Source: Marsupella aquatica | Lineage: Eukaryota; Plantae; Marchantiophyta | Direction: 5' to 3' | DNA length: 64,000 bases | NCBI GenBank assembly: GCA_973895155.1 | Contig: OZ316894.1 | Location: forward strand, 21,175,867 to 21,239,866 | Shown here: positions 12,533-60,920 of the stretch, piece after piece | How positions within the stretch are numbered: position 1 is the stretch's first letter | Layout: each line of letters starts with the position of its first letter | Notes under the pieces: generated by a model | The model's input: only the letters and a program-made list of their open reading frames with translations | Told to the model about the DNA's origin: nothing | Databases searched by the model: none | Translations under genes and position numbers: made by a program

Positions 12533-12885
12533 TCTTCCGCAATCAGGACCTCATCTTCCCCAAAAGAGGCACGAGAAGCAATTCCAATTTGATGTTCAAA
12601 ATCTATGAAAGCCTAAACAGTAAAGAGTCGTCACAGGACAAGAATTCAATTCTTCCGCAATCAGCAGGACCTCATCTTTTCCTAAATGTAACACAAGAAT
12701 TCAAAAGCGGCACGAGAAGCAACTTCACTTTGATGTTCAAACCTCTGAAAGCCTGAATCAAATGCGTCGTCAGGGGACGGGAATTCAATTCTTTCCGCAA
12801 TCAGGACCTCATCTTCCATAAAAGTGGCACGCATAGTCGCATAGAAGCAACTTCACTTTCATGTTCAAATCTATGAAAGCCTAAT
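12508..12885. repeat. Triplicated ~120-135-bp unit spanning the PHD-BAH start codon and 5' leader
   Basis: gtcgtca(g/c)..gac..gaattc(c/a)attctt(t)ccgcaatcag..gacctcatctt...gaagcaa...atgttcaaa...tgaaagcct occurs three times (~12508, ~12627, ~12765). Confidence 0.85.
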
Positions 12886-15259: not shown

Positions 15260-16759
15260 ATGTCTGGGAGGTGACGAGGTTTTTTCGTGACAGGTTTTTC
15301 CAGCGTTCATTGTCGATGGTACATTCGGAGTTTCGTCGCATGAAACTCAAATGTATGTGGTTGTGCGGATAGGTTAGTGAGAGGGCTTTCTAACGGTGGT
15401 TAGAACTTGTTGATCGGTATCCGTGGTGCGAAGGATTTGATGTTTGCATCGTTCAGGGTTTATTCGTGTTCGATGGTATTTTGGGGGAGAAACCAGAGAT
15501 CATTTCTTCAACGGTGTGAGCTGTGCGGTGTGCGGGGCGTTGCATGTGATAGTTCAAGTTGAAGGTTGGAGCATGTTGGTCGTTTTGGTATCTAGTTTGC
15601 TGAAGTTTGCGGAACGAGTGCGTCATGACGAGTGAAGGAGGCATTCTGGTTGTTTGACAAGCTATGGTGCTTGTTTTTCCCTGAACCGGATTACTCATCG
15701 TGACGCTTGACTCGGAGGAAGAAACGTGAAGTGCTGAGGCTCAACGGAGAGATCGTGGCGAGACGGTCGTTTTTGAGTCCGGGATTGGCACTTGACGCGG
15801 AGTGAGTCGACGCAACAGAAGTTCTTTCTCTGGTGGAGCTTCAGACGTGCCGGTGCAATTCGGAAACATTTTCATATCAGCGGTCATCACTTTTCTCATT
15901 GGAAACCAAAGCGGAGGCGGCTGAGGTTTGTAAGACGGCCTTTGTGTCATTTTGGGCACATTTTTAAGGTTAGTTTAGGGCATTTTTTGCCCCAATACGG
16001 CCCCAATACCCGACAAACCAGGTTCGCCATACGCCCCGGTGCACACACCGGCCTCCCACACCCCTCTAAGCGTGAAAATGTGCTTTTTTGGGCCCAAATA
16101 CGGCCAAAAATGCCCATATACGGCCCAAATACGCGAAAATACTCATGTTTTGACCCCTTTAAACCCATTTTTTCACATTTTTTGCTGTTTATACGCAATT
16201 CTGGCCACGAATACGCGCGCCTTTGCCAGGGGCTTTAAGACCCCTTTAGAGTGTGTTTTTCTGAATATATTTTTTTCTCTCCTCCTCCTCATTGGTTTTG
16301 CCTCATCCCGGGCCCTGTGACCCTCCGTTTTAACCGCTCCGACAGGGGGAACGGCCCCATGTGAGCCCTGTTGGACTGTGCGGGAATATTCCCAAAAATA
16401 AACAGAGAGTTGTTTTTTGGCCGTCCGACAAAGATTTCGTCTGCCGAACGGTAACTTTTTTAGTTCTTTTTCGGCAAGGACGTTGCCACTAGAGTTAGCA
16501 ACGCGGCGCACCAATCACATCGCGATTCCGACGACGGGTTGTCCTTGGTATTTTGGTTATTCTTTGAGGTGGTCAAAACGGGGGAGTTTCCCAAGGTTTT
16601 ACCCACCCCGACCGAAATTTGAATAACTTTTCCGTCGAATTTTGATTTTGATTTTGGCTTTCAGTATTGGACTCCTAGCTTCGTGGGCTACGCGGCGGTG
16701 TTGAGTTTTGAGTTTTATGAGAAGTTTTGAGAAAAGACATTTTTTCGTGATTATTTCAT

Positions 16760-19700
16760 ATGAGTGACTCGGAGGATACTGGAAGAATTGGCGTCGATGG
16801 AGCTTCAGGATCGCGACGATCAGATGGTGAGTCTAAGGAGGAGCTGCTACCGTTTGAGGAGGAACTAGTGACACCGGTACGATCACCGGTGCGGCGTGCA
16901 GTGGAGGAAGCTGTGTTACTACCAGAGCTATCGGTAGTAGGAAAGAAGAGGGAGATGGCTAGATTCGGAGGAGTAAAGTTTGAGGTGGAGAAGTACAATG
17001 GTCGTACTGACTACTTGCTGTGGGAGAAGCAAGTGAAGGGTGTTCTACGGGCCATGGGTTTAGCTCATCTGCTCTCTTCGCGAGAGCAGTATGATGGAGA
17101 GGAGGAGATTTCTTTGAGACAGTGGAGACAGGAACAGGTGATTGCTGTCAATGCAGTGATGCTATATCTCAAGCCGCATATCATCAAGCAGTTGGATGAT
17201 TATGCGGATTGCACGTCACTGTTCAAGGCTCTAAGAGAGAAGTACTACCGGGAAGATGCGTCAGACCGGCTGTACAAGAAGTCTCTCTTGATGAGCCTTA
17301 GGCTCAAGGAAGGGAGCAAGATGCAAGATCACCTGGATGAATTTGACAGTCTAGCGGTGAATCTGTCAAACCTGGGAAAAGAAGTTGAAGATGAGGATAA
17401 GGCCTTGCTTCTGCTAAGCTCCTTATTGCTGTCTTATCAGGGCTTGAAATAGGTGCTCTTGTACAGAGATTTAAAGTCCATTTCGTATAATGAGGTGGTG
17501 AGCTCATTACTGTCTGATGATGCTCAGAAGAAGCTAGGTCAATCACAGACAGCATCTTCTTCTAGCACTGCGTTGAATGTGAACAGGGGAAGAGCAACGC
17601 AACGCACGAATGGGCAGAACAGGTTTAGATCTATATCACGGAGGAGATCTAAATCCAGAGGGAAATTGCAAGAGAGGAAGCCTCTTGCATGTTGGAATTG
17701 TGGCAAGCCTGACCACATGAAAAGGGATTGTCGAGTAAAGGTCCCTACTGCCTCTGCTAATGCGGCATCGAGCTCGCATGAGGTAGATTTACTCGATGAT
17801 GATGACATATTGTGATGTCAAGGTTATGCTCTCAACGTAGTGTCAAATCCAGGTAGTGATGACTGGATTCTAGATAGTGCATGTACTTTTCACATTTGCT
17901 CTAGGAGAGATTGTTTCAATTCTTACACGATTTCCAACGGGTCAGTGTTGATGGGAAATGGAATCCCATGTCAAGTTGTTGGACTTGGATCTGTAAGATT
18001 TCAGATGTTTGATGGTGTTGTGAGAACGTTGAGGAATGTGAGACATATTCCCAGCATGATGAAAAATCTCATTTCACTTGGAGTTTTAGAAGCAAATGAC
18101 CATCAGTGGAGCTTTGCTAATGGTATCCTTCAGGTTTCAACTGGTACTAAAGTTGTATTGAAGGGAAAGAGACATAGCAATCTATACGTTTTGGAGGGCA
18201 GTGTAGTTTGTGATGAAGCCAATGTAACCTTATCTCATGAGGAGACGGCCCGGCTGTGGCACTTCCGTTTGGGCCACATGAGTGAAAAATGTTTGGTTAT
18301 TCTTTAGAAGAAAGGATTACTTTCTAATTTGCAATCTTGTAAGTTGGAATTTTGTGAACATTGTGTGCTAGAAAAGCAGCACAGGAAACCCTTCGGAGTT
18401 GGAACTCACACCAACAAGGAGGTATTTGAGTATGTACATAGTGATGTGTGGGGTTCAGCCCCTACTCCCTCACATTCTGGACGGTTATACTATGTCACGT
18501 TCATAGACGATTACTCAAGGTATGTGTGGATAAATTTTCTACACAATAAGTCTGATGTTTTTGCCACTTTTAAGGAGTGGAAAGCCCAAGTTGAGAATCA
18601 GACTGGTAATAAGGTGAAATATCTTCGATCAGATAACGGCGGTGAATACAGTTCCGAGAAATTTGGAACGTATTGTAAGGAGCAGGGGATTACCCGCCAT
18701 CTCACAACAAGTTATACTCCTCAGCAGAATGGTATTTTTGAGAGACTCAACCGAACACTATTGGACCGCTCGAGGAGTATGTTGAGTCAATCATGCTTAC
18801 CACATGAGTTTTGGGCTGAAGCTGTCAACACTACAGCTTATTTGGTAAAATTTTCTCCATCTAGTTCTATTGGATTCAAGACGCCATTTGAAATGAGGTA
18901 CGGGCATCCAGCAGATTACTCACATCTAAGGATTTTTGGATGTGATGCTTATGTGCTTACACCTTCCCAGCTTTGATCCAAGCTGGAGTCCAAGTCGAAG
19001 AAGTGCATTTTCCTTGGTTATCAGAAAGGTGTGAAGGGTTATAGGTTATGGGATCCAGTAACGTGTAAGCTAATTGTCAGTAGAGATGTGTCCTTTAATG
19101 AATCCAGATCATCAAAGGAGGGGGAGAGTTCTCAGGACTCCCATACTGACAAGGGGAAATCTCCCATCCCGGACCGGGTTGAGGGGGAGATTAGTCATGA
19201 TGCAGTTCATGACAGGAGAGATGGAGAAGCTTCGGGCTTGGAGCTGGTTCCTGTGATGGAACAAGAGGAGCAAATTGTTGTTGGGGTACCTCAAATTCAA
19301 CCAGCAGCAGCAACAGATCAGCCTAAGTCATCTACTAGAAGAACTTCCAGTCGTTCTACTAGAGCTCCTACCAGGTATGGTCAATGAGCAGACTCATCTA
19401 AGCTAGATGATATTGACATTGCACCTGATGAAGATGATATGGCTTTGATCTTGGAAGAAGGAGAGCCTTCTTCGTATAGTGAGGCTTGTGCTTCAGAGCA
19501 GAAGCATGAGTGGAATATAGCAATGCAGAGGGAGTTGCAATCTTTGAGTGACAACAAGACATGGAAGCTGGTGGAGCTTCCAAGAGGTCAGCAAGTGGTG
19601 GACAGCAAGAAAATTTACAAGTTGAAGGATAGTCCTTCAGAGGGTGGAGACAAGATCTACAAGGCAAGGCTTGTTGCCAAGGGATTCACTCAGGAGAAAG

Positions 19701-21033
19701 GAGTGGATTACAATGAGGTCTTTTCACCGGTTGCTAAGTATTCCATAATTCGGATCTTGTGTCAGCTTGTTGTGTTTTTTGGTCTGGTGATGGATCAGAT
19801 GGATGTTGTTACTGCTTTTCTCTATGGCAACTTGGAAGAGATGATTTTCATGAGACAACCACTAGGCTTTATGAAGAAGGGCCAAGAGAACTTAGTTTGC
19901 AGATTTCTCAAGTCCTTGTATGGATTGAAGCAGTGTCCCAGACAGTGGAACAAGCGGTTTGATGATTTCATGCTTGCTCAAGGTTTTACAAGGATGGTGT
20001 ATGATCCTTGTGTGTATACGAAATCAATCAAGAATGATGTATTTGGTTTCATCATTCTAGTTATCTATGTGGATGACATGTTGATTGTGGTTAAAGATCA
20101 ATCTGAGGTTGACAGTCTCAAGGCGAAATTGAGTGTTGAATTCAGGATGAAGGATCTTGGTAAGGCCAAGACAATCTTAGGGATGGAGATTTTTAGGAAC
20201 TCTGAGACTGGACAGTTGTGCTTGAGTCAAGGCCAGTATGCGAGGAAAGTACTTGCACGATTCAACATGGAAAATTGTAAGCCAGTGAGTATTCCTTTAG
20301 CTTCACATTTCAAGTTATCATCGGCTTTCTCTCCTACGGATGCTGTGGAGAAAGGTCTGATGGCTAAGATTCCTTATGAGAAGGCAGTAGGCAGTCTGAT
20401 GTATTTGATGACTTGTACTAGGCCTGACTTGGCCCTAGCGATGGGCAAGGTTAGCAGATTCATGTCAAATCTAGGGAAGATACATTGGGAAGCTGTGAAG
20501 TGGATTATCAGGTATCTGAAGGGAACATAGGACTATGGATTACTATTTGATAACAGATCAAATAGAACGTTAGTTGGCTATGTAGATTCTGACTATGGAG
20601 GCTATCTGGATACAAGGAGATCTACAACTGGGTTTGTATACACTATTGGAGGAGGATGTATCAGTCGAAAATCTACCTCGCAAAAGTGCATATCTCAGTC
20701 TACTACAGAAGCAGAGTATGTTGCAGCAGCAGAAGCTGCAAAGAAAGCAATTTGGTTGGATAAGTTGATCACGGAGATGGGTTTAGAGCATGGAAAAATG
20801 ACTCTAAACTGTGATAGTCAGAGTGCTCTTCACTTGGTTGCTAACCAGGTGATGGATAGCAGGGTAAAGCACATTGATATCAGGTACCATTTTATCAGGC
20901 AAGTAGTGTCTGATAAAACTTTTGAGTTAGTCAAGATTGATGGAAAGCTCAATCCCGCTGATGCTTTACCAAAGTGATTCCTTTGGAGAGTTTCTCAAGA
21001 CACCGTGCTACTTTACAGGTTTTGCAGTTGTAA
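16760..21033 (+). pseudogene. Copia gag-pol polyprotein interrupted by six in-frame stops and a terminal frameshift
   Basis: Zinc knuckle CWNCGKPDHMKRDC, protease WILDSAC, integrase LWHFRLGH/VHSDVWG/LRSDNGGEY/PQQNG, RT YKARLVAKG/QMDVVTAFL/YVDDM, RNase H TEAEY/KHIDIRYHF. All ORF pieces share one frame. Stops at 17450, 17813, 18305, 18974, 19385 and 20528; probable 1-nt deletion near 20970. Confidence 0.95.
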
Positions 21034-28109: not shown

Positions 28110-31100
28110 TTAATCGTAATCATGCTGTCCTCCAATAAGCTGATTCACGGCAAACAAGCTCTGCAGTATACATCACATGATAACACGCACAAAAAATTAG
28201 CTGCCCTTCAAGATGTCCTAATTGTGATATGCCAATTCAAAGAGATAACCAATACTTTCATCAACTAATTCTAAAACATGAAGACAAATACCTCCAAGGT
28301 TTTATGTTTACTAAACATTGTGAGCTGATGATACTTTAAAATGCACCAACATGACTCACAACTTTTTCTCACGACAAATGAGAGTATACCCTGAACTCCA
28401 TGATTCCACTTAACGGCTCCAATGCATTGATTGTGAATAGTTAGTTCGTTCAAACGTAGCTCAGGGTTTTGCAACTCACTTGTTCAATATGCCTAACAAG
28501 CTTTCCCAGTTTGGAGACTAGAGCTCCATTCCTTCCTGTACCATCTAGTTCACTAGCGCCATTTTGCACATGTGTCTGAAAGATCTTCAAGTGAAGTTTA
28601 GAGGCGTCATGAGCTGCAACGAGAGATGGGCAGGCATCTATCTTTTTTAGCACTGAAGCGATCCTCTTCTCAGTAGAAGTCAAGATCCAAAGTGTAGAAG
28701 CAGCATTGGCTCGGGCTTCCAAACTGGAGCTCTCCAACGATTTTACAAGCAGTGGGAGTGTGCGCTCATTGCATAAGAAGAAGAATCGAGTTTCTCGACA
28801 GAATGCCAAGTTGCGCAACAAGAACAAAGCTGAGCTGCTGGCTGGGACATAGTGTGTCTGCTCTACTGTATCCAACACCTGCGACATAAAAGGCAGTAGA
28901 AAGATGTAAACTCAAGCACACCGGCCTAGCTATAAAACCCCCCATTTAGTTTCTTTGCGTTTGTGCGAAATACATACAAGTTGAATACACGGACATCCCA
29001 GACAAGTACCTGACAATTTTCAGATCCTCTGATTATTATAGGTGGGAGGCATTACCAAATCAAGCATGCTGCCATCAGACAGCCCCTTTGAAAGCATCTT
29101 CTGACCGTTTGGATACACAGATACATTGATCAAAAGCTGCAGTAACAGGTGCTGTCGTAGCACATCGTTGTTGTGCACACTCTGGCGATAGTGTTGGAGG
29201 AATTCTGCAAGGTACTGCTTTCTAAGAAAAATCGCTCTTGCTTTTGCCATGGTCACCAGAATTTGCAGCAACCCAACAGCAAGCGTATATGTTAGCTGTT
29301 CTGAAGGACAACGGAGCACAATGACTGTGGCGTAGTCCAAGAGGCTACCCCCCTTTCCACCTTGGCATATTTGAGTTTGGCAAGCCATGGCTTCTTTGGC
29401 TGCATCACTTTGAGCGGCCAGGTTACATAGTAAGCCTAGGATTTCATTCAACAGATCTTCTTCTGATAGAGCAAAACCCCAAATTAGGCGAATGAAATCA
29501 AATATTCCCTCACCACCGCATGCTTCTGCTGCCAGAGGGTTTTCAAAAACTAGGTTTTTGAGTAAGCGGAAGTAGACTATCAGCTCTCCAAGAAGTAGGC
29601 TACGATGGTGCTCGCTTAGCTTGCCCTGCTTAGCTTTCCGTGACCAAATTGAAGGTCGAACTGGCTGAGTGACCAGTTTTGGTACTTTGTTACAAGGCTT
29701 AGACCTGTGGTTGTTAGAATTTCCCAGCGTTGTGGTAAGGACATTCCTCATAGGTGCAAGGCCACAGGAACCCAAGAGAGCATACGCCTCGTATGCATGC
29801 ACGACCAATTTAGATGGTAGATCTGAATCGACAGCAAATTCTCTTGCCTGAGAGCTGAAGTCACAAGCAACAAATGGTTTTCCAAAAGTAAGAATGGTTT
29901 TCCACAATATATTGATATGTGTGGATGCTCCAACAAATAACAGTCAATAGGGAAACCTATTTCGTACGCATCGGTGCAAAAGGAACAATGGTCTAAATCT
30001 GGATCAAAGCAGGTGACTCAAATGGAATACGGTCAATATCGAACAACAGAACTCCTTAAAGTATAAACCATAATCTTGCTCTCTACATCTGATCGAAGGT
30101 TGTTGACATATGGTGAGGAAATGAAGAAAGTTTAGAGTGTAGTGCAGAAAGCATGACTGCATCAATAGCCCTGCCAAGTCTTAATCGATTCATGTTTCAC
30201 GATTCGGCTTGTTCCTATTCTTCTTGGGGTGTTGCAAGAATCCAACTATCGTCTTCAGCTGTGCGGCAAATCAAGCTTTACTAGGGAAGAACCTAACCCT
30301 GAAAGAAAACATGAGAGCCTACACACAGAAAGCACGTTAATAAAAGTGAACCTAAAGAGCACCCAAAGAATCGGACAGATTTCCTCAGTCAGAGGAGTAC
30401 CTGAAAGAAATAAGATTTTGCAGCGCGACACCAACGGTAAAGAGAATAGTGTAGAGAAAAACGAGAATGTCTCCGTTGTGAGAGACTGTGTGTTTCCGAC
30501 CCAGCTCATGTATCTCCTTCATGATCAATAAAAACGAGTTGTATAGCTGCAACCATGTAGCATACATTTAGGCTATCCGCACCATTCATAAAGTCCATTT
30601 TATATGCAAGGGTCTTTGCCTGGAACTATCCGGACAGAAAGAATCTCAAAGCTTCCTGAAGGTGATATTGATGGAGATCAGCTGACCTCACGTGATGAAG
30701 GATAGAAGACAGCAAAACTTACAATAGGCGCAAGATGCAGCGGCTTTTGATTCCCAACGCTGGAGGTAGTCTCCCAATAGTCCACTCGATCATTCTCTAG
30801 AACAGCTTTTGCAAGATTCTCCTCCGAGAGAAACGTGGCTAGAAGTGCACAAACTGCCAACTGCACCCTACGTAATAATACACTCAGAATCCTTCCAGTG
30901 TCATTCTGTCCAGCACTGGGTAGGTCCTTTATGAGTGGTGCCCTCGCAAGGATTCGTGAAATGATTCTGCACACTCCAGACTTCCCCAAAATTTCACCAA
31001 GAGATTTGTGAAACCCAGACTGGAATGATAAACCACCTCGTAGTGGCCTTCCTTGAGATTTTCCCTCCCTCAAATTTAAGGACACTATGTCACTAACTCG

Positions 31101-34100
31101 AACGTGATTGATTGCTCGATGTGGTGGTGCGGCAGCTTGTAGCAATTGTGATACCACAAGATTAAGAGCTTCTGAAACATGGAATATAGCTTCAAGTCGC
31201 TCATATTCTGTTACACTATAGAGGTTTTCTTCATGGTAACACTCCACCATATCGTGCCCTTCTATCCTGGCGCCTCCAGATTTACTATCCCGGTAACAAC
31301 CGGCCATACCGAGAGGTGGGCAACCCAAACAGTAAGACAGAGCACAAAGAAGTTTTGCAACAACAAATTCGTTTTGAACCAAGGACTGAATTTGGACATC
31401 TTCTTGCTGGGAAAGAATGCAAATAATCTCTGCTATATACCCTTTAGCACTACATATGTCGGGGGAATGCACGCACTTTGGTACATTTTCTCTGGCGTTT
31501 TCTGTTCCAAACTCCAAGTACTCGATCATCAAATCAAATGCACATGGGTTTAGGGAAAGTTTGCTTTTGATGAAGCCTAAATCTGAAACTGTCAGCTTGA
31601 GGATCAGCTCGAGCAAAACACGATGGAAACCAGGAGTGCCATTGCTCTCTTCTAGCATTCTGGTAAATACTGACCAGAATTTGTATCTTTGTAAAGCAGC
31701 ATTAACACCAAGGCTGTCGATTCTTTCAAACCCAGCAGGCATTGAATTCCTTTCCACAATTGAAGATAATCGTCGTCCACTGCTCCAAATAGTAGTTGAG
31801 ATGAGAAAGCGCAGAGCCTCCTGACGGACAGCATAACATTCCTGGGTGTTCAATATAGTGTGCACAGCTACGTCTCCAAGTTCTGGCCAATTTTGCTCTA
31901 GCAGGGCCCTTATTTTGACAGTGACTGGAGATGCCAAGACTGCCAGAATTCCAAATCCCATCCCTCTAATGGTTGCTTCTTGATCATCCAGAAGTCTCGA
32001 AAGCCAATACGTAATTCCAGTAGATGACCAGAGTTCTTCCCAAAGATGAGGGGGGACACAGGATGTGACTGACCAGAGACAAGACACAATCTCACGCACT
32101 AAATACTTGTGTCTAAGCGAAAGACAGTGATGGGAGTGAAGATGAGCCATGTGTTTGATCAAAGGTAATACTACGTCAACCAGCTCGGTTCCAATGGTAT
32201 CCCACAAACTGTCTCCATTCTCCTCCATGCTTGCTGATTCTTGTTGCCGTATCTCATTCTCACCATGTAAGTTCCTTAGATCACCATCCCCTGGTTCGGA
32301 TGAAGCCTCACTTGAACTTTCCTTGTCCTTCTGATGTGAGTATCGTGGCGGATAACCATCACTCCTCAAAGCAGCAGCAATCCCCTTGGCAACAAGTGAA
32401 ACACACTGCACTGCCAAGACACAGCAGAGGTATGGAGCGCTTGGGCCTTTTATAAACTTCGAAAGTAGCACTGGAAGCAAGCTTGTACCCTGCAAAACAT
32501 GCCAATCTAGGACAAATTTACCTACACAATCTAGGAAGGCCAGCAATGAGAGTAAAGGTATTCCAGAAATATATTCAGGACCATAGGCACATTTGGAGTA
32601 AATAAACCTCATTGAAAAAGGAACCTTGGAGCATTCTCTGAGCTAAGGTTATATTGAATCGCTGCTCAAGAAATCCAGGGAGTCATAAAGCTGTTGAGGG
32701 AATCAAACCTTTGCCAGAGCAACTGCTGTCTGACCGAATAAACTTGCATCTCCATGCTCTTTTGAGCAAAGTAAGATATCAACAAACAGCCTCAAAATAG
32801 TGAAATCCATATCACATGCGGGATATCCTTCAATTAGGACAATTGCATGATGTAGATTTGCCCCTGAATTGAAACGAAAATATCGAACTCAGTACAATTA
32901 CATGTGATGTATGATGTGAACAAAAACAAAGAAATGCCTTTGGCGTTCGTCTTCAATACTGTATCCCAGCAATTTTGTATTCAACAATCATGAACAGCAA
33001 AAGCAGTACCAACTCTTGGAGTTGGACTCTTGGCAAGTATGGGTAGGAGAATCTGCTTGGACACCATTGTCATGAAAAGTAGGCCTGAGTAGCCTGAAGA
33101 TTTTGAGCTGATGATAATCTGTACAAGCCTAAGTACCTGCAAAAAAGGATTTCTCAAAAGCGGAATATATTTTCTTCACATGCTCAGCAATTTAGAGACA
33201 ATAATGACATTCATATGCACGATGCTTTCCATCTCATTAGCTTCATGTCTATTTAGCACTATGTCCGATGTTACGGCACAATTGGACAGAAAGTATTTAA
33301 TGCTGTGACAAGAAGAGTCTGTCACCTTCAATAGTTGTGCAGATTCCGCTAGACTTGAAGGAATTCTGGTCAGGAATCGTTGAAAAGTCATAACCCAAGA
33401 AGATCTTGCTAACATCTTTGCTGCCTTCACAGGTACCATCAATGTTAAAGCCATTCCATTCTTGACTGAGCACAAATGCTGCTGACTCCAGGACTTCCGT
33501 TTTTTCCCTCCGTTACCAGGACAATTTTGTGGGCAATTGAGCTTTCAGATCTCACTTGTATGTAAATTTCTAGTCATGATTAGAGAATGTTTGCTTACTT
33601 TGGTTCTGTCTATCAAACAAGAAAATGTTACACGTCTTAGCTTCGGTAACAGTAGGAAGACATCGAATTTAGAGGCCACTCCCTGGACACTTGAAGCTCT
33701 GCTCACAAGGTGGCTGCTTAAGAAAAAGCACTAAGAAGTTTTAAAGCCAATTGAACCGGCACATTTACTAAGATGAAGCCCTCTCATCCTATATCTCAGC
33801 TCACTTCTCCACTCCTGTACATAGAAGTGTTTTCTAGGACTGAAATTTAATTGGGGTGCATATCGTGCATTTCAAAGAGACAAAGAGCTTTCTACTAGAA
33901 GTGTCTTTTGAACGATTTAGCACGTACAAGCTTGCGCTACAAAATGTCCTACAAGAAGACTCACCTGTGGATGGCGGAAGCATTGAGTTTCAAGTTCTTC
34001 CAGAAGCCGAGTCTCCGATCCCCAGCACTAAAATTTAACCAGGTCCTTTACTTAGTACTCCTTCCGTCGCAGTTAAAGCGGAACACTTGAATTAAACTTA

Positions 34101-37100
34101 CAAGTCGTAAAATGGTTGAATCCTTTTTTTAAACTGAGGGAATCTATCTGCGTGCCAGCCATTGTTAGACTAGAAATAGCCCAATGTAGAAGACTATTTA
34201 TAGGCAGGCCTAGCGAATGAACAAAGTTGCTGAAGTGACTTCAAAATGAAATTTTAATAATGAAAATCAAATCCCAACTTTTGCGAACATGCATGGCCTC
34301 ATAGATGGTCAAGAAGAGGACATACAAGTTGGGGATCTGTTAGTAACTTGAGAAGCTTTTTGACTGTTATATCTGCGTGAAGCACAGAAAGACATGCCAT
34401 CGCTTGCAGCTCCACTGTTCGCAGTTGGTCCCCCGCCGATGCAACCCTGCTTTCAAGTGATATTAGCAAGTTCTCAGATCCTCCTGCAACAGTTACAAAA
34501 TGAGTGTAAGGAGATTTAGTCCCCAAAACATATGGCGTTTTCTATACTTCTTGCAACACTGCGAGGAGGGCTGGCGAGGAGGACCCTACCCTTGAGGAGA
34601 ACAGATTGAGCTATGACACGGTGGATTAGCTTCTCATCCACCAGGCTTTCAGCAGAACTTTTTACTGCCGGTCTCACGGCTACACAAACTACCCTGCATG
34701 GGAAGAGATGTCCGCCGACAAATGGGAAAGGGACAGCAATCCGGATGTCACGATCAGTCGAATGAAGGTTTGCACCAATAATGTCCTTCGTTGTTGAGAA
34801 CGGATACTGATTGGGATCATGATCAAACACGATCTGCACATATGGATAATTACTCAGATTTGTCCAGTTAAAGTAGAAGCTTACTTAAGCCATACTCAAG
34901 CAGTGGAAAAGACAATCATATATTACATATATATATTGTAATATATGTAATTACAATATATCTAAGTACTGAAAAGAATCGACGTAACTTCTGAACGTCT
35001 AATTAGAGCTTCGGAGGGATGATTTACCTCCTTCAAGCCCCTGAGCAGCAGATCCGAGCTAAAGAGAGTGAAGGCAAGAAGCAATGCCATGTCTTTTCTG
35101 ACACATTCAAAAGGATGGAACACAAGAGGGATGAGCAACCATAAGACTTTGCATGAGTCTCCAATCAGCAAGTCTCGCAAATTTGGTACTCCGTACGAAG
35201 CTGAAGCTGGTGCCAATCTTGCGAGTAAACTCAAGCATGCGATTCCCAAGTCAGTAGGACCTGTACCAAGACTGTCCATCTTCTCAGGACTACAATGTCT
35301 ACGCCTGTCGCTGGATACATCAGCAAAACCTTCTGAAGGCTTGTCCCCCATTCTCATCCAATCAAAAATCTCTACGATCAAAACCTTGAAGAGCTCCTCA
35401 TCGTTATCCAAAATCTCTCTCAAAGATTGATCTTGAATAAGCCATGTCAAATGCTCCACTGCCGTCTTTCGGATGGCTTCAGCTACTGAATGAGACTTGA
35501 ATATACCTAGCAGTTCTTCCACTTTCTTTTGTCCACCTGCTGGAATTTCACGTTTTTCACCTCTTTCCTCTTTTTCGGAAGGTCCAAACGCCATGGAGAA
35601 CAATGTTGCCTCCTTGAACTTAAGACACTTCTGAAATGGATCTTTAAGACATTGGAATGGGTCGTCTGGGGGAATGTCAATAGATCTTTGAGAAAAACCG
35701 TTTGAATGTAGCTCAGAGCTCTTCAATTTTCTCAACCACCAGCAAGACTCCTCCAAGGTGCAAAACTGTCTCAAGATCATCAATAGCTCAGTTGAAACCC
35801 TGTAACGCTCAGAAGTGCAAGAGCTAAACAAAGACCGTAAGGTACATGAGAGTTGTGCCCATTCAAGTCTTAATTTGTTCCCAATCTGAGAACTTCGTTC
35901 TTTCTGCAAACACGGCTTGGCGGCAAAGAGGATGGAATTCAATTTTTCTACGATTTGCAAAATATCCGGTGAGCGGTATGCACTACATGCTATCCATGGA
36001 TACCCAGGAAAAAGATACTTGTATTCAGTGTCAGATATCTCTCCAACCAGATGTTCCAAGAGTACGGCTGATTGCTGCACGTAGATACAAAGGCGTACTT
36101 GCTTAGCTTCAGCAGCCATAGTGAGCACACACAGCGGCTCACGTTATCAGCGCGTGATAAATGAAGCACATAGAATTAAAAAGTAAGAAGCTCGTAAAGG
36201 AAATCATAGTTTCCAAACTTAGGATTCTGAAAAGATAAATTGCAAGAGCTAGTCCAATCAATAAACTTCATGAAGACTTTTTCATGTAACACCGCTCTAG
36301 AAAAACATGTCAATTCTTGGAAACTAGAAGATTCTCACAACGACAGCTACATTTATTCCTCTGGTCAAAGAAAGTATTTATAACCTTGCAAGTTGCTGTA
36401 TCATGCAGACCAGTTGCTATAATCTCACCCATGATGGAAGTGCCAAATATGAGCAATCTGTGAAGGACACTCAAAGGTCGAAGTTCTCCATTTCTGCAAT
36501 GAAACATGTGCTCGGACTCATCGCTACCAATGCAGATCCTGAGATCCCCCACTGCACATGCTTCTTCGCAACCGGATGCTAATTGAGGCTTCAAGTGGCT
36601 GTGCTGCTGAGCCAGCCATCTCTCCTTTGAAGATACCTCCAACAGGGAGTCATACGCAACTTGACAGATAGATGCTGTGGTGTGAGAAAGGAGCAGCCAA
36701 ATCAAGTTTCTAGCAAGCCCAATGACAGCTTCTAGTGCGACACTTCTGGACGGTTGAATGCTGCCGTCATCTTTTTCACTGCCCATCTGATGTTTTGCAT
36801 TTCCTCGACAAGCGTTGACTAATTCTATCCTGAGGACATCCGGTATAATATGTAATATCCTTGGAATCAGATATCTGTGATTGAAATAAGAATAATTGGG
36901 GACAGCTTGAATCATGCACTTGAGAAGCATCTCTGTATTAATCATCATAGATGCATTAAGTCGCTTAGCCTTCCAATGTGCAACGGCTTCTTCAGATGAG
37001 GCTAGTTCTTTGACAAGAACATGAAGAGTAAACGATGCCTCTGTTGCACGCGTATAGCTGTCGAAAAATTCAGGACTTAAATACTTCAAATATGGGGAAA

Positions 37101-40100
37101 TCTGCATCGCATTGCGGTATTTGACGTTAGTATGAAACAATATAGCATTGACACAAGTCCTGACAGATATTTCATGGCTCCAACTGTGCTGTGATCATTT
37201 AATGGATCCTATGCGCGTGTTCATTGCTCTACTCGTTGATATACCTGCGACCACTTAGCGTGTAAACTAAAAAACCAGAGACATGCGAGAAATCAAGGAG
37301 GAGAACAATTACACTTTTGTGTATTCCAAAGGTACACTCGGCCAGAATCAAATCCCCAGAGAGTGTGGTCAGGGCCTTCACAAGTACATGAGGTAATAAG
37401 CCTGCGACATGAGAGGGTTGAAGTAAACATAGAAGCTCTGCTGAGAAACTGAGCACCCTTAATACCGGGAAACAGCCCTGAGCTCGTTCATAAAAGTCCT
37501 GTTTCGTTGCAACATCCATACACATAGTTTCCAGGTCTTGAGAGTTTCCATTGACGCTTTGCAGCACCTCAGAGAGAGCATGAAAGTACTGAGAGAAATG
37601 TGCTTGCACCTGCATTGTTACTGGTCAATGGATAATATGCATAGGAGAGGCATTGAGGAGCAGGACTAAAATTTACCAGGAGGAGGAAATATTCAAAAAG
37701 CTCTACATGCATACCAAGAGTTATCATCATTCAGGACCAATCCCATCATCAATGCCATAAGTTGCCATCGAAGTCGACATAAACTTGAACAACATGAAAT
37801 TCACACCAATTGCCAAGAAGTACATTTATTCCATGACGGAGTTCAGATTCAGCACACATTTTCCTTTTGAACTGATGAACAGATGTATGGTTGAATTTGA
37901 AAAGCATTTTGCTGCATTGATGATTGTTGTTGCTGTATAAATATTCAGTGATGTAAGCTAGAGTAGAAGGGTGGGATCAACTGGTGCTGTATAAACATCA
38001 TGAGAATAGGCTTGTTCTGTAGAACAAAACCATAAACTAACATGAACGACCCAAAATATTTCACACTCGTGTCACCAGGTCAGAATGCACACCTTTCCAT
38101 CCAGAGATTTCTCGACGGGCGGCTTGAGAAGTGGCAGGAGATCATAGAGGATAGCAAAAGTCATGTCCCTATGTCGGTCATTCACCAGTAGAGATATAAG
38201 TTGCAATGCAACCAAGTGTAGTGTACGACCAAGAGAAATGACCGGCTGGATGGTATCCCTATTATCTAGTTTTAATTTATCGACTAAGTGTAAGACTTTC
38301 TCGTCGTCTAGAGCATCATGTGTAGTCGGTTTGAGATAGACAGGATAGCTGCATTTGAGATCCAATCCAGACTTCAGAAGAGATGAACCTCCACTATCTT
38401 GCAGTCCATGCGAAGGTGACTCATTCAGGTGAACTTGAAGGCCGGCTTCCCTGGAAAGTTTCAAAGCGGCCTGCAAAACACACCCTTCCGGAATAATATC
38501 TGAATCATTCTCACCAGCACTTATGACAGCAAGCCTAAGGGCAGTCCCTGAAGCCTCCTCCTTAGACTCTTTACAAATTTGAAGCTGAATTGGTACATAT
38601 AAGGAAACATTGGCAATCACCGATCTACTGTAGCAACCATAAACATAAAGGAATCCAGGTGGTTGTCGGATGAGATGGTGGGACCTTGATTTTCCGCACA
38701 AGTTCCGCAAGAAACTCGAACACAATCCGTTCCAGGTTACTGTCCGTTATCGTTTGAAGCAACACAAATGCATTCTGCAAATTTCACGACCAACTCATTA
38801 GGTACATACGGCACTAGTCTAGCATCACACCTTCGTGAAGTAGCTCTAGATTTTTGTTTCCTATGGCTTTTTGACAGACCTACGACAGCAATTGTTCTTC
38901 GTCAATTTATCACGTTGAATTGGTTTCAGGCGCCAGGAAAAGGACACTAGCATTCTTGAATAAACATACTGGAGACAATACGTAAGGGGATCATCCCACA
39001 CGGAAAACTGATTCAATCCTGCATTCTGATTACTGTTACAGATACTTTCAGGGAATCTACAATTTTGTCTTTGGCAGTCGATAATAGTGTTTTTACACAA
39101 TCATGAACTAAACATCGTCTTAATGCTGGCGTGGAATCTCAAACCACACGTAACCACATCTTGATTAGTCAGCAATTTATTTATTTAGTATTCGGCCCCC
39201 AGGGCAATTCCATTATGGGGGTAGAATTCCATTCACCTGCAGAATGGAATACTTCTGGAAAAATGCCTCGGGATGGAAGTCAAATACAACCGCTTCCCTG
39301 AGCTCTTTCAGAGCAGACCGGAGAGCTTCCCGATTATCAAGTTTTTGTAAAGAGACTGCAGCACGCATCCCTTGGTCAATGAAGAGCATGCTGGCATAGA
39401 AATACTTTTAAAAACTTTGTCACTCGTGAAATTTTAACCTCAATTCTATCACAGCTACATGGCAGAATTGTCACTTTGTACACACTGCACTCTCCACTTT
39501 CTGGGGTTCCGTAGAATTCAAATGGATTCATTCATTCTCTGTTCCAAAGTAGACCAAGTTCACTCATTGAGAATTTACTATTTTATCGGGAAAACTGCAG
39601 AAATCAATTGGTTCATCCATTCTTATCCCAACTACTGTGCAGCGTTGATCACAATAATAATGGAGGGAGGAATGATGTTGAAACTTCTAACTCACCATTC
39701 AGGTTGACGAGATACATTTCGTCACCCTCCTCCAGATCAATGCATGGGAAGGTCGGCCCAATATGATCTGCACCAAATAAATAACAATAAAGAGTATGAT
39801 GATATAAAGGCGATCAGTGTACACAGCTCCCAGGAAAATTGAGAAGATGTTGTTGGGGTTCTAAAGCACTATCATCAGTGACTAAGTTAAAACGTGGACG
39901 AATGTGAGGTACTAAGTCTGAAGGTGCCACAAAGTCTGAAGGGCTTGATCTCTGAAACACTGGTCAAGGCTATCTGAATTATTGAAGGCACTAATACTCG
40001 TTAGCTGGACTCTTCCTATGCACACTCACGAGTTCAGATCGCAGAGTTGATTTAAAAGCAGAGGTTGCTGCCATGAGTTTTGGGACCTGTTTGCGACACA

Positions 40101-41873
40101 TTTGTAAATATGTGATATTCCGGTGGTTGCTTGAGCAAAAAGTTGATTTGGGTGGGTGCTACTGCTTTTTCCTGGCCTTCATTGGATGATGGCCTCGGTT
40201 GAAAAGGTTGACTAGCGACAGGCTCGGTGCATGTTGCAGATGCTGGGCTATCTGCCCGACTCCCAGATGTAGGAGCACACCTGCTCATTTCCCCGAGCGG
40301 GAAGCCATCCATTTGCAAACGACGGTCCCTGTTCCCCTTCGATGATGGCTCATTTCTTTCAGGGATCTCAATAGTCAATGGGCCCGGTTTACTTTTCACT
40401 TGACAGTCATCGGACTTATTCCGGTCTTCCTGTCTGCAATGACCCCGTTCAGCAGCATTATCAAGAATAGGTTCTCCTTCCTGGCACCGGCCGAATGGTA
40501 ACGGGAGCTGAGTTGCTGGTACAGCATAACCCATTCCGGTGTCTCGAAGATACATTGACCTTGAAGATTCGTCCACCTTCTTATTGGTTGGCTTGAGCAA
40601 GTTCTGCAGAAGTCCAGCAACATAAGGTACGATTGTATGGCAGCAGTCGGATTGAAACAGTTCCATAAATTCCACCGCGCCAAGATCGATGAGTAGCTTT
40701 CGATGTACATCATCCTGCAGACAAAAGGTTGTCAATCTTCAAACTCCGCGAATCTTGCGAATTACAGTACTCCCGACTGCGCGGCTTTCCCAAAACTTAA
40801 CCATCAATGTCATTGAGTAGCAGAGATGACATTCATGGTGGAGATCTCATAGGTGAGAACATTCGACTAAAGGCTGTCGTCGGCATTGGTCATCGAAACC
40901 ACCAATCCTTCGAATCTGATGGCTGCTTTGAAATTACAAAATTTAAATTCACGTTCTTTATTGAGAAGTGACCGACGTTAGTAAACCGACTTGTGGAAAC
41001 ATGCCTGCGCGATCCTGCTAAGCATGCTCAGAACCAAAATCTCGTGAGAAGGCGATGGCAAGTTGAACCATTCCAAGAGTGAACGGAGCAGCGCTTTTGT
41101 GTCTTTCTCTGGATCACAAGTGGAGAGTATTCCACTGGTCAACGCACACTGCAATTTTCCCAGCGCGCTGCGGCGAGTGCACGGCGATGGATCCCCTGTT
41201 GTCATCAGAGAAGGCAGTGAGATGCTATCTGGTAGTGACTGTGATGTAAATGCTCCTAAGTGAGATTTGATTATGCAGTTTTACGTTCACGGAAACAGAT
41301 TATCGTATGATTAATGAAAATGAAGATCAGTTAAAAATGATATAAAGAATTGTGTACAGGTCTGAAATTGGGGTTGTGTCAGCACGCTTGAGCTTTTACG
41401 GAAGAGTGTTGTGACCGATCAGTTCGTTTCTAACAATACACATGAGCTACAGTAGCTAAGTGTGCTGATAGATTGAATTGGGAATCAGATTCATCGTAAG
41501 CTGGATCTAATTTCAAATGGTTGACCATAGATCCCTCAAATAGTCTCGCTTATTAGAATGTGAGAACCCGTAGGGCTTCAAAAGCCTTGCCTTAGACCAT
41601 CGAATGCTACCCCAGTAGCTCGAAATTTGACCAACGATTAGTCCTCAAGATAAAATTCAAATCTCTTGGATTACAACTCTCCTTACAACTCCTGTAAATG
41701 GATAATTGAGGTGCCTTTGGTAATAGTGAGTCGTCACTTTGGAGAGCAATGAAGCAGGAAGCAACGACGGAAATGGGCGGGTGTTGAAGTGAGGGGGCTG
41801 AATGCTTCAAACCGAGTTCAATTGCGATGGTGTGTATGGGATGCAGCAATTCGTCATTCGAACTCTGTTCCAT
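28110..41873 (-). CDS. RTTN: Rotatin (RTTN/Ana3) homologue, ARM/HEAT-like centriole/basal-body protein; roughly 18-19 coding exons (first 41873-41813, last 28160-28110)
   Basis: N-terminus IELG|DPSPCTRRSALGKL...LLEWFNLPSP...LSRIAQ|DDVHRKLLIDLGAVEF, then FPCIDL and DFHPEAFFQK, and C-terminal LLRNLAF...NAASTLW. These match recalled animal rotatin motifs (LLEWFNFP, LVDVGAVEF, DFPAEIFLQR, AAALW). Start context GCCATGG. Confidence 0.88.
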
Positions 41874-56933: not shown

Positions 56934-59866
56934 TCATTGCATATTGTGCAATCTTGGTTCGGGCCAGCTTGGAATGTTCGCTGTCGCCTCATTCACTGCT
57001 TTGACCAAGGTCACCTGTACTAACACAAGTCATACACAAGAAATGAAAAGGTTTCTGAGGATGATCATATTACAACAGCTACTCAACACCAAAAAGTTTT
57101 ACGAGTTGCATGAATAAAAATCAAGAATGCGAACCTCGAAAACTTCTAAAAAAATCCGGAACGTCAAATAGCCATCTTATGCAGGTCATTTGTTTTTGGC
57201 ACAAGAAGTCACAACAGTTCCAATGTTTCTCCCGTCTAGAAGAATGTATAGTAGCATCTTTTGTCGCTTATCTGAAATAATTGGCGCAACTAAGGTATTT
57301 GAAATCTGAAAAACTTCAGTTTACAGACCGAACAGGTTAGCGAAATCCAAAATTTTCAGAACGCACCACTGTTTCGGGAACTCCAGGAGGAGGCATAGGA
57401 AAATTTTTGGGAGGATATTTTTCTGAGAAGGACCTCTTGTCAAACCTCCACTCCCCAATCGTCCCATACGTCAACTCACCCTGCAGCACATATCCAGAAT
57501 CCTCCCCATAATGTCAGCATACGGTGAAGTTCAACAATCGTACCCAACTACCCGTCCAGAGAAATGAGGTTTCTGGGTAAATGATACTGATAAGGGATGA
57601 AAATGCGGACTCTGCTCAAGTTTAATGTGCAAAGTAGTAGAGCTATTGGTCAAATTCACCAAACATATCTGGCCGGTCCCTTGTGCATAAATAAGTGAAT
57701 TCAAGTACCATCTTTCAAACTCGATATTACAGGGGGATCCGCATACTTTAGCTGTTGCACCTATGGAGGATACTACCTTCATGTTATAATCACATCCATA
57801 AGAGTAGTGAATGATATAACCGTTCTTGATTGCTGTGTCAAACGGAGTCTGGAAACAGACGGCAATACCACAGGATAAGACGATGGACTTGCAAAGCCAA
57901 ATTACCTTCATTGTGTAATCACAGCCATATGTGTAGTGAATGATGTACATGTCTCGTAGTTCAAGGTCCCAAGGAGGCTGAAATCAAACAGCAGAGAAAC
58001 TGTCATGAGTTATGACATTTATCTATAAAAGATATAAGACTTATACTTTGCAAATTTCATGAGTTGGGACAGAAAAATTGAAAACTCCCCCACGCACAAT
58101 TCAGAAACCCTAAGATTGGAACTTGGTAGCTACCGCGCCTTCTGTCAAGGTCATTATTACCTGGAGCATGAAATCTTTCCTCAGAATGTGCTGAACACCA
58201 TGAAGGGCAGATGCTGTAGCATAGGCGTACCTGCCATAGAGTCCACACGATCTGTTAACGTCCCTTACTTCCGTGGCACTCTATTCGAAGTCATTGTACA
58301 ATTATACTGTCTATCACAAGCACAGTTCTAGAGATCAATTCCGCGCGGATTCGTAAAAACTACAAAAAGCATTCAAATCCAATTTGTGGTCTTACATTTC
58401 CAGCACCCAACCAAATTCCTTATCAGCTTCTGGATCGTCTTTCATGGCTAGCGAGGTATTGTGCCAGGTTGGAGCAATCTTCATCAGCTGAGACTGAACT
58501 CACCAAAGATAAAACCCAATTTCCCCGGATCAGAGCGAAACTCGCATGAAGAAATTGGGAGACCGAATGCTTGAAAATGCAATATGGCACACTCTATGTT
58601 GACATTAGGTAGATGAAGTTCGAGGGAGACAGAAACTCGAGCAACACCTTCTTGATGATGACTGGCGAGTTGCCGATCGGGTCAACGTTGGAGATTGGGC
58701 CCTTTTCGACGGGATAAAACCTCCGCATAATTTTTTCAAACCGTTTGGGCTCGATGTAGAAAAAAGGAAACCCAGCAGGCATGTCATCTGTAGCCAAATT
58801 AGGCAGCGCCCTTATGAAAATGTGATCCGGTTCGGCCATCATAATATACCTGACACGACGGCATTGGGGAGCTGTTAGATTGCAGACAGGCCCGCTTTTA
58901 ATTTCCTAACTACGCAAGCAACCTCAAGCAGGGGTCATCCAATGATGAGACGAAATCAGCAGTGACTTCAGAGATTCGACAAATTATGTCATGTCTTGAG
59001 CCAAAAATATGAGCTGAATGCCAGGCATTGCTATTTCAAACACTCACTCTTCTTCAATGTTCGCCTTTTCTAGCCATTGAACAAACGCCCACGGCCGGTT
59101 CAAAACGACATATCCCTGCACAATCAAACCATCCACTGTCTCGATCGGGTACGGGTATGGGTCTATCCAGCTTACGAAATGGCAGTTTCCGCCGATGTGA
59201 GCTGATCCTGATTTTGGTTAATTTCTTTGGTTCCGTTAAACCCAGCTGAGCAGGTGAAGAAACACAAGTCTCATCCACTCTGCAACAACGGAAATAACTA
59301 AGGACGGAATGGAACATTTAGAAATTGCTTTGGAGCGACATTGCAAACAAGAAAGAACTAGACGAAGATAAATAGAAACGCTCCCTCCAGGAAAACATCC
59401 TCAGCCGTTGCGAAAACGAGGAACACACCCGGTCTTGGCCCGGAGGCAGAGGATCCACTATGAATGTGGGAATTTCATCCATCACGTCGTCGGGTTTGCC
59501 GGAGTGCAAGAGTCGGGTGAACCCACCCATTTCGGAATCCGGATGATCCTTCAATTTCTTATACCAGTAGTACATAATCAGGCACTGCCACCGGTTATAT
59601 AGCGACTCATTAACCGTGACCACCACGTGATACAACCTCTTTTTCTTCGGTCCCTGCTGCAAACGCCTCAAATCGCGCGGCATTTTCACTAGTGGATCGA
59701 AGTACCTTTCGGAATTCTCGTCATCTAAAACCGAATTAGAAAGAGCACCACGATCAGACAAGTTCAACTTCGCCCTGTACATGACGATCATCGACGCCGT
59801 GTTGTACGTGACTACACAGAGGGCAAACGTGACCACCAGCAAGAAAATGAGCGTCGTCCGCCTCAT
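56934..59866 (-). CDS. HPAT: Hydroxyproline O-arabinosyltransferase (HPAT/RDN1 family, GT95), multi-exon
   Basis: N-terminal TM, YNRWQCLIMYYWYKK, MGGFTRLLHSGKPD, GYVVLNRPWAFVQW, MAEPDHIF, DPIGNSPVII, FGWVLEM|YAYA, IIHYTYGCDY, GEWRFDKRS, VNEATANIPSW. Confidence 0.96.
57777..57848 (-). other. HPAT alternative exon B (72 nt)
   Basis: ttccag|TPFDTAIKNGYIIHYSYGCDYNMK|gtagta. Confidence 0.88.
57906..57977 (-). other. HPAT alternative exon A (72 nt)
   Basis: tttcag|PPWDLELRDMYIIHYTYGCDYTMK|gtaatt. Confidence 0.9.
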
Positions 59867-60750
59867 TGTGCCGAAATCTTTCCTCTTCTCTACGCGTTCA
59901 AATCACTTCCTTCCCCTGCTACTCCCTCCGCTTCTCTCCCTATAAAAACCCCCACGACCTCCTCGCGAGCTCGTCTTCACCTTGTCGCACCAATAATCGC
60001 CCCAATCCACCGACACAGCCGTCTCTCAATCAATCATTCACAACTGAATCCATCGCCACCGCCCTCGCTAAATGAGCCCAAACCTACGCCCCTTCTCTGC
60101 TGTTCCTCCTCCTCCTCCTCCTCGCGCAGAATTCGAGCTCATCCATTTCTGCTCTCTTCTCAAACAATCGTCCCGTGGGTTCTCAAGAATCACGTCCATT
60201 TCTGCTGGCTCAAATGCTCTCTCGTCAAATCGACCTGTCGGATCTCAATGTCTTTATCGTCCCACTGTCTTCATCGTCCCGGGCGAGAAGCAGGTTTCCA
60301 TCGCTGCCAAGACCTTCAGACCTTCAGACCTGATGATGAGGAGGAGGAGGAGGAAAATGTACCGAATTTGTTCCAATTTCGGAATGCGCGAGAGAGACAA
60401 TCATGAGCTGGACTGAGATAACTCTTCTGAGATCGAGCCCGCATTAAATTTGATGGAGGATTTCCTCGATTCCGCGTCGGCGAGCTGCTGCTGCAGCTCT
60501 GTTCTCCGACCGAACCCGCATTTGACGGACGATGCTTTCGGTCTCACAGAAGACATTTCTCTTCAGTCTTCAGTCTTCATTCCCTTCGAAAGTAAACGTA
60601 CCGGTTTGTTTTGTGATGGGGCCAGTGGGGCCAAGCCGAGCCGACAGTGGCGGACACCGTTGGCTCCGTACGGACTCTCCAACGGTATTACGTTAAAACA
60701 GTGAACCTGTCTAAGTGCAGGTTTCCCGGGATGACACCATCGAGTAGCAC

Positions 60751-60886
60751 CACCAAGTAGCACTTATCCAGGGACTGGACTATGTTATAAGTGCACAGGG
60801 TATCATTCACGCATTTTTCACCAAGTAGCACTTATCCAGGGACTGGACTATGTTATAAGTGCACAGGGTATCATTCACGCATTTTT
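60751..60886. repeat. Perfect 68-bp tandem duplication
   Basis: caccaagtagcacttatccagggactggactatgttataagtgcacagggtatcattcacgcattttt twice; a diverged relative lies at ~61425-61465. Confidence 0.9.
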
Positions 60887-60920
60887 CCATTAGCAGGAAC
60901 CCAGGGGGTCCTGGTACATG

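Follow-up and report, generated by a model that had tools for sequence, protein, structure and literature searches.

A duplicated exon pair, probably spliced in a mutually exclusive manner, in an HPAT arabinosyltransferase gene of the liverwort Marsupella aquatica

The analyzed window (64,000 nucleotides [nt] of Marsupella aquatica contig OZ316894.1, positions 21,175,867 to 21,239,866; all coordinates below are those of the window) contains a minus-strand HPAT (GT95) gene with eight coding positions, the sixth of which is occupied by a duplicated exon (A or B). Exon 1 (59429..59866) starts with the ATG and covers the N-terminal membrane anchor region and the start of the PF23452 domain, which was matched by this exon alone with 96.9 bits (E = 1.9e-27; gathering cutoff, 23.9). 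It is followed by exon 2 (59048..59115), by exon 3 (58648..58849), which encodes EPD, a likely DxD-type motif that would presumably act as one, and by exon 4 (58396..58493). Exon 5 (58161..58230) is the shared upstream exon, with a phase-0 donor, and exon 7 (57367..57480) is the shared downstream exon, with a phase-0 acceptor; exon 8 (56934..57014) runs through the stop codon. A subthreshold Rfam match on exon 4 (E = 0.19) was put down to chance. Between exons 5 and 7 lie exon 6A (57906..57977), the family-typical copy, and exon 6B (57777..57848), a diverged copy, with a spacer intron (57849..57905) between them. The other seven introns of the gene measure 154 to 352 nt.

The nearest named relative of isoform A was a Calypogeia fissa protein (CAM6093762.1, 380 amino acids [aa]; 312 of 380 residues identical). 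Identity to the Marchantia polymorpha HPAT was 273/365 (approximately 75%), and mosses reached 70 to 72%. The N terminus is hydrophobic in sequence and corresponds to a predicted helix (residues 3 to 35) in the structure model of the C. fissa orthologue. A tblastn match to another C. fissa protein, the HPAT paralogue P0112, runs upstream of the HPAT ATG and across a stop (59867-60037, minus strand); the N-terminal extension of P0112 may be conserved 5' untranslated region annotated as coding. Approximately 900 nt upstream of the HPAT start, there is a perfect two-copy 68-nt tandem repeat (60751-60887).

Other features of the window were of different kinds. A Ty1/copia-type gag-pol (16751-20977, plus strand), with the domains Retrotran_gag_2, rve, and RVT_2 in one frame, contains six in-frame stops and no frame shift and is, as far as its sequence tells, a dead plant retrotransposon. 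Two long open reading frames (ORFs) on the minus strand (8293-12550) matched PHD-finger and DUF7797 domains and probably represent a single chromatin gene. Long ORFs of 654, 393, 307, 294, 228, and 224 aa at 29020-40738 (minus strand) had no Pfam match and possibly belong to one large gene.

The duplication of exon 6, first noticed in an earlier note on this DNA, is confirmed. Both exons are 72 nt long, of phase 0, and bounded by AG and GT, and their peptides are identical at 14 of 24 positions; the spacer measures 57 nt, as had been described, and is in frame and stop free. One boundary in that description needed correction, since the upstream exon ends at 58161 and not near 58166. At the nucleotide level, A and B are identical at 48 of 72 positions (blastn E = 5e-8). 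Each is preceded by CAG and ends in AAG|GTA. A degenerate pattern of the exon end matched twice in the 64-kb window, compared with 0 matches expected from 100 shuffles. In equal length, similar sequence, same frame, and compatible splice sites, A and B agree with the definitions of neighboring homologous exons in PMC5740500 and PMC3923563. DNA contigs of run X1, which is possibly the assembly's own source, cover A, the spacer, and B with 0 differences, and run X3, from another study, provides overlapping contig pieces across the cassette, also with 0 differences. The four runs with the HPAT gene (X1 to X4) cover its introns and contain no splice joints, and they look like DNA. Reading through the donor of B as coding sequence (the frame is open for 81 codons) was rejected in view of 1-nt indels at 57543, 57599, and 57617 in other haplotypes.

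A second genomic copy (copy 2) was recovered at 80% likeness as contigs in X1 and X3, the two of the four runs in which it was checked. It aligns to 57774-57992 with 23 differences in 219 nt and no gap. Because a matching exon-5 piece is present in all four runs, copy 2 was read as a paralogue or homeologue; the linkage of its pieces is based on equal depth. Of its differences, 19 are listed (7 in B, 6 in the spacer, and 6 in A), and the remaining 4 lie near the alignment ends. In A, they include R8K, M23L, and three synonymous changes. In codons 1 to 15 of B, there are five nonsynonymous changes (T1P, A6E, N9K, G10S, and Y11C) and two synonymous ones, a composition not significantly different from neutral (Fisher P = 0.47). 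Copy 2 thus has P at position 1 of B and keeps P2, F3, D4, I12, I13, H14, and Y15, with codons 16 to 24, including the Ser column, unread; the Cys of Y11C is absent from the residues listed for its column. The pooled synonymous divergence between the window and copy 2 was 5/19.6 sites (approximately 0.25). Compared with a neutral rate of 0.25, B (at most 10/72; P = 0.016), the spacer (6/57; P = 0.006), and the intron piece before A (P = 0.01) were conserved. Compared with a rate of 0.20, P values were <0.05 only for the spacer, exon A, exon 5, and a piece of copy 3 (see below), and B had a P value of 0.12.

Outside this segment, two parts of copy 2, the central portion of intron 5 and the intron that follows B, were below the aligner's limit at 80% likeness. 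In the former, copy 2 has 95 unaligned letters, whose loose end appears by eye to be homologous with indels; the loose end after B has, also by eye, two short motifs in common with the intron of the window. A third copy, detected in all four runs, keeps 57975-58032 with 5 differences in 58 nt, and its exon 6 region was unmatched at 80% likeness. By eye, its loose end looks like the beginning of intron 5; if so, the intron would be much shorter in this copy and would nevertheless retain the element described below. A second haplotype in X3 carries A6E and Y11F in B and four changes in a spacer of unchanged length.

Exon B looks selected as coding sequence. Over the whole exon, A and B differ at a proportion of synonymous sites (pS) of 0.70 and of nonsynonymous sites (pN) of 0.25, that is, near synonymous saturation. 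In codons 11 to 24, pS was 0.68 and pN was 0.07, and for B against the Sphagnum-like exon of a metagenome locus (L004), the values were 0.79 and 0.06 (both rough, with approximately 7 synonymous sites). Most of the A/B differences sit in codons 1 to 10, where pN was approximately 0.5. When random substitutions were simulated (10,000 trials), a stop-free exon scoring at least as high as B was obtained in 2 to 4% of trials with 10 changes, in 0.2 to 0.5% with 13, and in at most 0.03% with 16. The behavior of B in these comparisons is that expected of a translated exon, as the earlier note had assumed. B is nevertheless the peptide most diverged from the HPAT family profile, mainly through codons 1 to 10; its score was 49, whereas the lowest score among the 157 training peptides, which included the family members, was 59.5. 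With the L004 exon as a reference, 14 lineage-specific sites were assigned to B and 5 to A; a further 5 that differ in all three exons were unassigned.

The duplication is likely older than the split from Calypogeia, because residues of A match C. fissa and residues of B match Marchantia, Riccia, and mosses. Exon A is identical to the C. fissa exon at 22 of 24 aa and has L5, M10, and T22 in common with it. B resembles Marchantia, Riccia, Sphagnum, and Ceratodon in having T5 and N22 and resembles Marchantiales in having I7. A tree of the 24-column exon was unresolved and did not reject A and B as one clade (p-AU = 0.22).

To place exon 6 in the protein, we used a structure model of the C. fissa orthologue only (80-sequence alignment; pLDDT, 89.9). 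The model has a GT-A fold (Foldseek E = 1.6e-8), and its best matches were GT6 enzymes, glycogenin, and LgtC. The blood-group GT6 match had a Z score of 16.4 (root mean square deviation [RMSD], 3.7; 225 aligned residues), and the LgtC match had a Z score of 16.2 (RMSD, 3.5; 236 aligned residues). A sequence-based search for HPAT relatives among solved structures found none. Exon 6 corresponds to residues 293 to 316 of the model, and a strand within it ends at H306; many GT6 alignments end at 308 to 309 against 345 to 346. H306 is likely the GT-A metal-binding C-His at the start of the C-terminal variable region, a reading that follows from its position at the end of the last core strand and from PMC7185993, rather than from a residue-level alignment. 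That source links the C-His to metal binding and the C-terminal variable region to acceptor specificity.

The earlier note had placed the W>F and T>S changes of B near the active site and proposed that they yield two different enzymes. For the exon as a whole, this location is compatible with the orthologue model, where exon 6 encodes the last part of the GT-A core. The consequence attributed to W>F is less secure, since F at column 3 is found naturally in the family (8 of 256 motifs, one of them from a transcript of the hornwort Nothoceros), also in full-length HPATs, and need not switch specificity. Judged by the family alignment, the unusual change in B is T>S: each of the 255 fetched proteins with the motif carries T at column 16, and the Ser of B occurs in 0 of 255. 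The His-Tyr-x-Tyr-Gly-Cys-Asp-Tyr core is present in both exon versions. Since this core is kept, a new reaction is not expected; the likeliest effect of the exchange, as predicted from the peptides, would be a change in kinetics or acceptor preference. In Arabidopsis, HPAT1 to HPAT3 are described as redundant on EXT3 (PMC8012813).

We searched for the pair in other genomes and proteins. A double-exon pattern (spacer of 45 to 105 nt) had 0 matches in metagenome contigs, and a single-exon pattern matched 29 loci with 9 distinct exons, which were flowering-plant-like and Sphagnum-like, none being recognizably liverwort. All 29 loci had one copy of the phase-0 72-nt exon within up to 1.5 kb on each side, by a profile that finds both A and B in the window. 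In copy 2, A, the spacer, and B are kept without a gap; the two C. fissa orthologue models contain the A form only. Neither a tandem exon 6 nor the Ser of B was present among the 255 fetched motif proteins. Homologue searches and a HMMER search of representatives (45 matches), in which clustering at 90% and 50% would hide B isoforms and no leafy-liverwort transcript was recognized, contained no B-type or A+B protein, and the members listed for the clusters of 15 proteins included no B-type member. The sole protein with two motifs, Brassica cretica P0111, was set aside as a 208-aa half-gene repeat. In the mostly open-access literature searched, largely at the level of abstracts, we found no report of exon duplication in HPATs. 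Searches on alternative splicing of HPATs, bryophyte mutually exclusive exons (MXEs), plant tandem exon duplication, and duplicated exons in glycosyltransferases likewise returned no report of the HPAT pair, and the main text of PMC4738400 lacks the strings "splic," "isoform," and "exon."

The spacer is a GT-AG intron of 57 nt, with the same length in copy 2 and in the X3 haplotype. In an Arabidopsis study (PMC3371709), the minimum intron was set at 60 nt, near the experimental limit. The only YTNAY match in the spacer is a branch-point-like CTTAT with the A at 57876, 29 nt from the donor of A and 28 nt from the 3' end of the spacer (a guess from the motif). This distance is below the 50 bp between donor and branch point that a human MXE catalogue counts as steric interference (57 clusters, 9%; PMC5740500); any usual branch point in a 57-nt intron would be. 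The position of this putative branch point agrees with the steric exclusion proposed in the earlier note. The nine distinct spacer changes are spread evenly over the frame positions (3/3/3), and none falls at +24 to +38, around the branch-like motif, as would be expected of a splicing signal rather than of coding sequence retained in the mRNA.

The 3' part of intron 5 before exon A (57978..58048, minus strand) is also conserved, with 7 differences in 59 nt compared with copy 2. It contains a branch-point-like CTCAT and a predicted 6-bp hairpin (58017-58001; pair probability, 0.8). Positions 57985-58019 were recovered as one 35-nt contig with 0 differences, at a depth equal to the sum of copies 1 and 2. 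This segment is likely a splicing control element, to judge from its conservation. A predicted duplex that loops out A and would hide the donor of A (-17.5 kcal/mol) was picked after the fold had been seen. Shuffled sequences fold about as well as this region (z = -0.17), and three of the six spacer changes of copy 2 fall in the 3' arm of the duplex; of the predicted RNA structures, only the 6-bp hairpin, located at the branch region of A, was therefore retained as a lead. A selector pairing between the intron downstream of B and the region before exon 7 (-14.1 kcal/mol) was rejected, since 6 of 476 background windows were as good, as was its spacer equivalent (33 of 476); both had been chosen post hoc.

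Depending on the splicing choice, the protein would be 380 aa with A or B, as long as the C. fissa orthologue, 356 aa with neither, 404 aa with both, and 423 aa with the spacer retained. All of these outcomes are in frame and free of stops, so frame shift and nonsense-mediated decay (NMD) could not enforce exclusivity. Our preferred explanation, which we consider probable, is that an old tandem duplication of HPAT exon 6 gave rise to two in-frame 72-nt copies that are spliced in a mutually exclusive manner through the short spacer. The spacer would probably be too short for removal, leaving A and B unjoined; U1 on the donor of A and U2 on the branch point of B, 29 nt apart, would exclude each other, and B would still be spliced in. 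The conserved intron-5 element might set the choice between A, as the default form, and B, as a tuned variant. The output would be two arabinosyltransferases of 380 aa each, with 10 differences among the 24 residues of a segment predicted to end the catalytic core.

Other explanations account for parts of these data. It is rather unlikely, in our estimate, that B is a formerly used alternative exon that is now rarely included and drifting, with A alone sufficing. Such decay would fit the faster evolution of B, the presence of T1 and S16 in columns that hardly vary elsewhere, the Y11C change of copy 2, a nonsynonymous rate between copies indistinguishable from neutral, and the absence of B-type proteins among those fetched. 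Yet B has kept its splice sites, length, and frame in the window and in the readable parts of copy 2 and the X3 haplotype; its changes fall in the most variable columns of the family or lead back to the consensus, and the spacer and the upstream intron are conserved between copies. Another explanation is that B encodes a weak or inactive isoform, so that the switch lowers HPAT activity rather than changing it. The Ser of B, found where all 255 proteins have Thr, and its position as the lowest-scoring peptide on the family profile point in that direction. However, codons 11 to 24 are almost fully conserved at a saturated synonymous distance, more than a decoy needs, and T>S and W>F are conservative, with F known from natural full-length HPATs; we regard a weak isoform as very improbable.

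Inclusion of A and B in one mRNA, with the in-frame spacer retained (423 aa) or the 57-nt intron spliced (404 aa), would be permitted by a spacer that is a multiple of three and stop free in the window, copy 2, and the X3 haplotype. With 46% G+C, the spacer slightly exceeds the seven other introns of the gene, and intron retention is the most frequent form of alternative splicing in plants (PMC2682935). The spacer changes show no third-position bias, though, and the acceptor and branch-like motif of B are kept. In addition, a core strand present a second time outside the core should be free to lose its invariant residues, and both copies have them; we consider joint inclusion unlikely. The suspicion that the pair is an assembly artifact or a chance likeness, which the possible origin of the assembly from the best run might raise, can hardly be sustained, given that a second study covers the cassette, that the diverged copy 2 also has it, and that 24 of 72 nt are different between A and B. 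The existence of one core strand in two selected copies is easiest to understand if A and B take the same place in the core, each in an isoform of its own, as mutually exclusive splicing would allow.

In animals, homologous MXEs are a familiar phenomenon. The human duplicated MXEs of PMC5740500 resemble the HPAT pair in being neighboring homologous exons of equal length, frame, and splice type, with a short donor-branch distance, that encode the same protein region. They differ in that the pair described here belongs to a plant gene and is described from DNA; its length is a multiple of three, with no enforcement by frame shift or NMD. In Arabidopsis, the Kassiopeia report (PMC3923563) gives 99 predicted internal MXE candidates, none annotated as MXE in TAIR10, and calls homologous MXEs rarely reported. 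The Arabidopsis FLM/MAF1 exon pair is similar in that one of two internal exons is used and a short segment is changed. Its exons are unequal in length, with 19 and 15 aa, and PMC3266260 describes the 3' exon as cryptic and of recent origin. The HPAT exons, in contrast, are true duplicates of likely old age and encode part of an enzyme core. The Marchantia CLU exon 22 (bioRxiv 10.64898/2026.03.13.711532) is likewise a case of a liverwort gene with two proteoforms through one short exon, but by exon skipping and not through a duplicated pair. Plant HPAT/GT95 genes (Arabidopsis HPAT1 to HPAT3, Physcomitrium HPATs, and Marchantia Mp3g24020) share the PF23452 domain, full-length homology, and the phase-0 72-nt exon; exon 6 is doubled here and single in the 29 metagenome loci.

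If the preferred explanation of mutually exclusive splicing is true, a selected and likely old exon pair in the core of a liverwort enzyme would constitute a clean plant MXE case with a compact mechanism. It would also supply a natural pair of HPATs differing only within 24 residues, which is useful as solved structures of HPAT relatives were not found by sequence. Such exon pairs would go unseen in new bryophyte genomes wherever each locus is annotated with a single isoform. Three C. fissa HPAT paralogues (P0112, P0114, and P0116) have strongly altered exon-6 peptides in which the GCDY motif is lost. On the evidence of these sequences, the exon-6 segment diversifies in leafy liverworts by gene duplication too.
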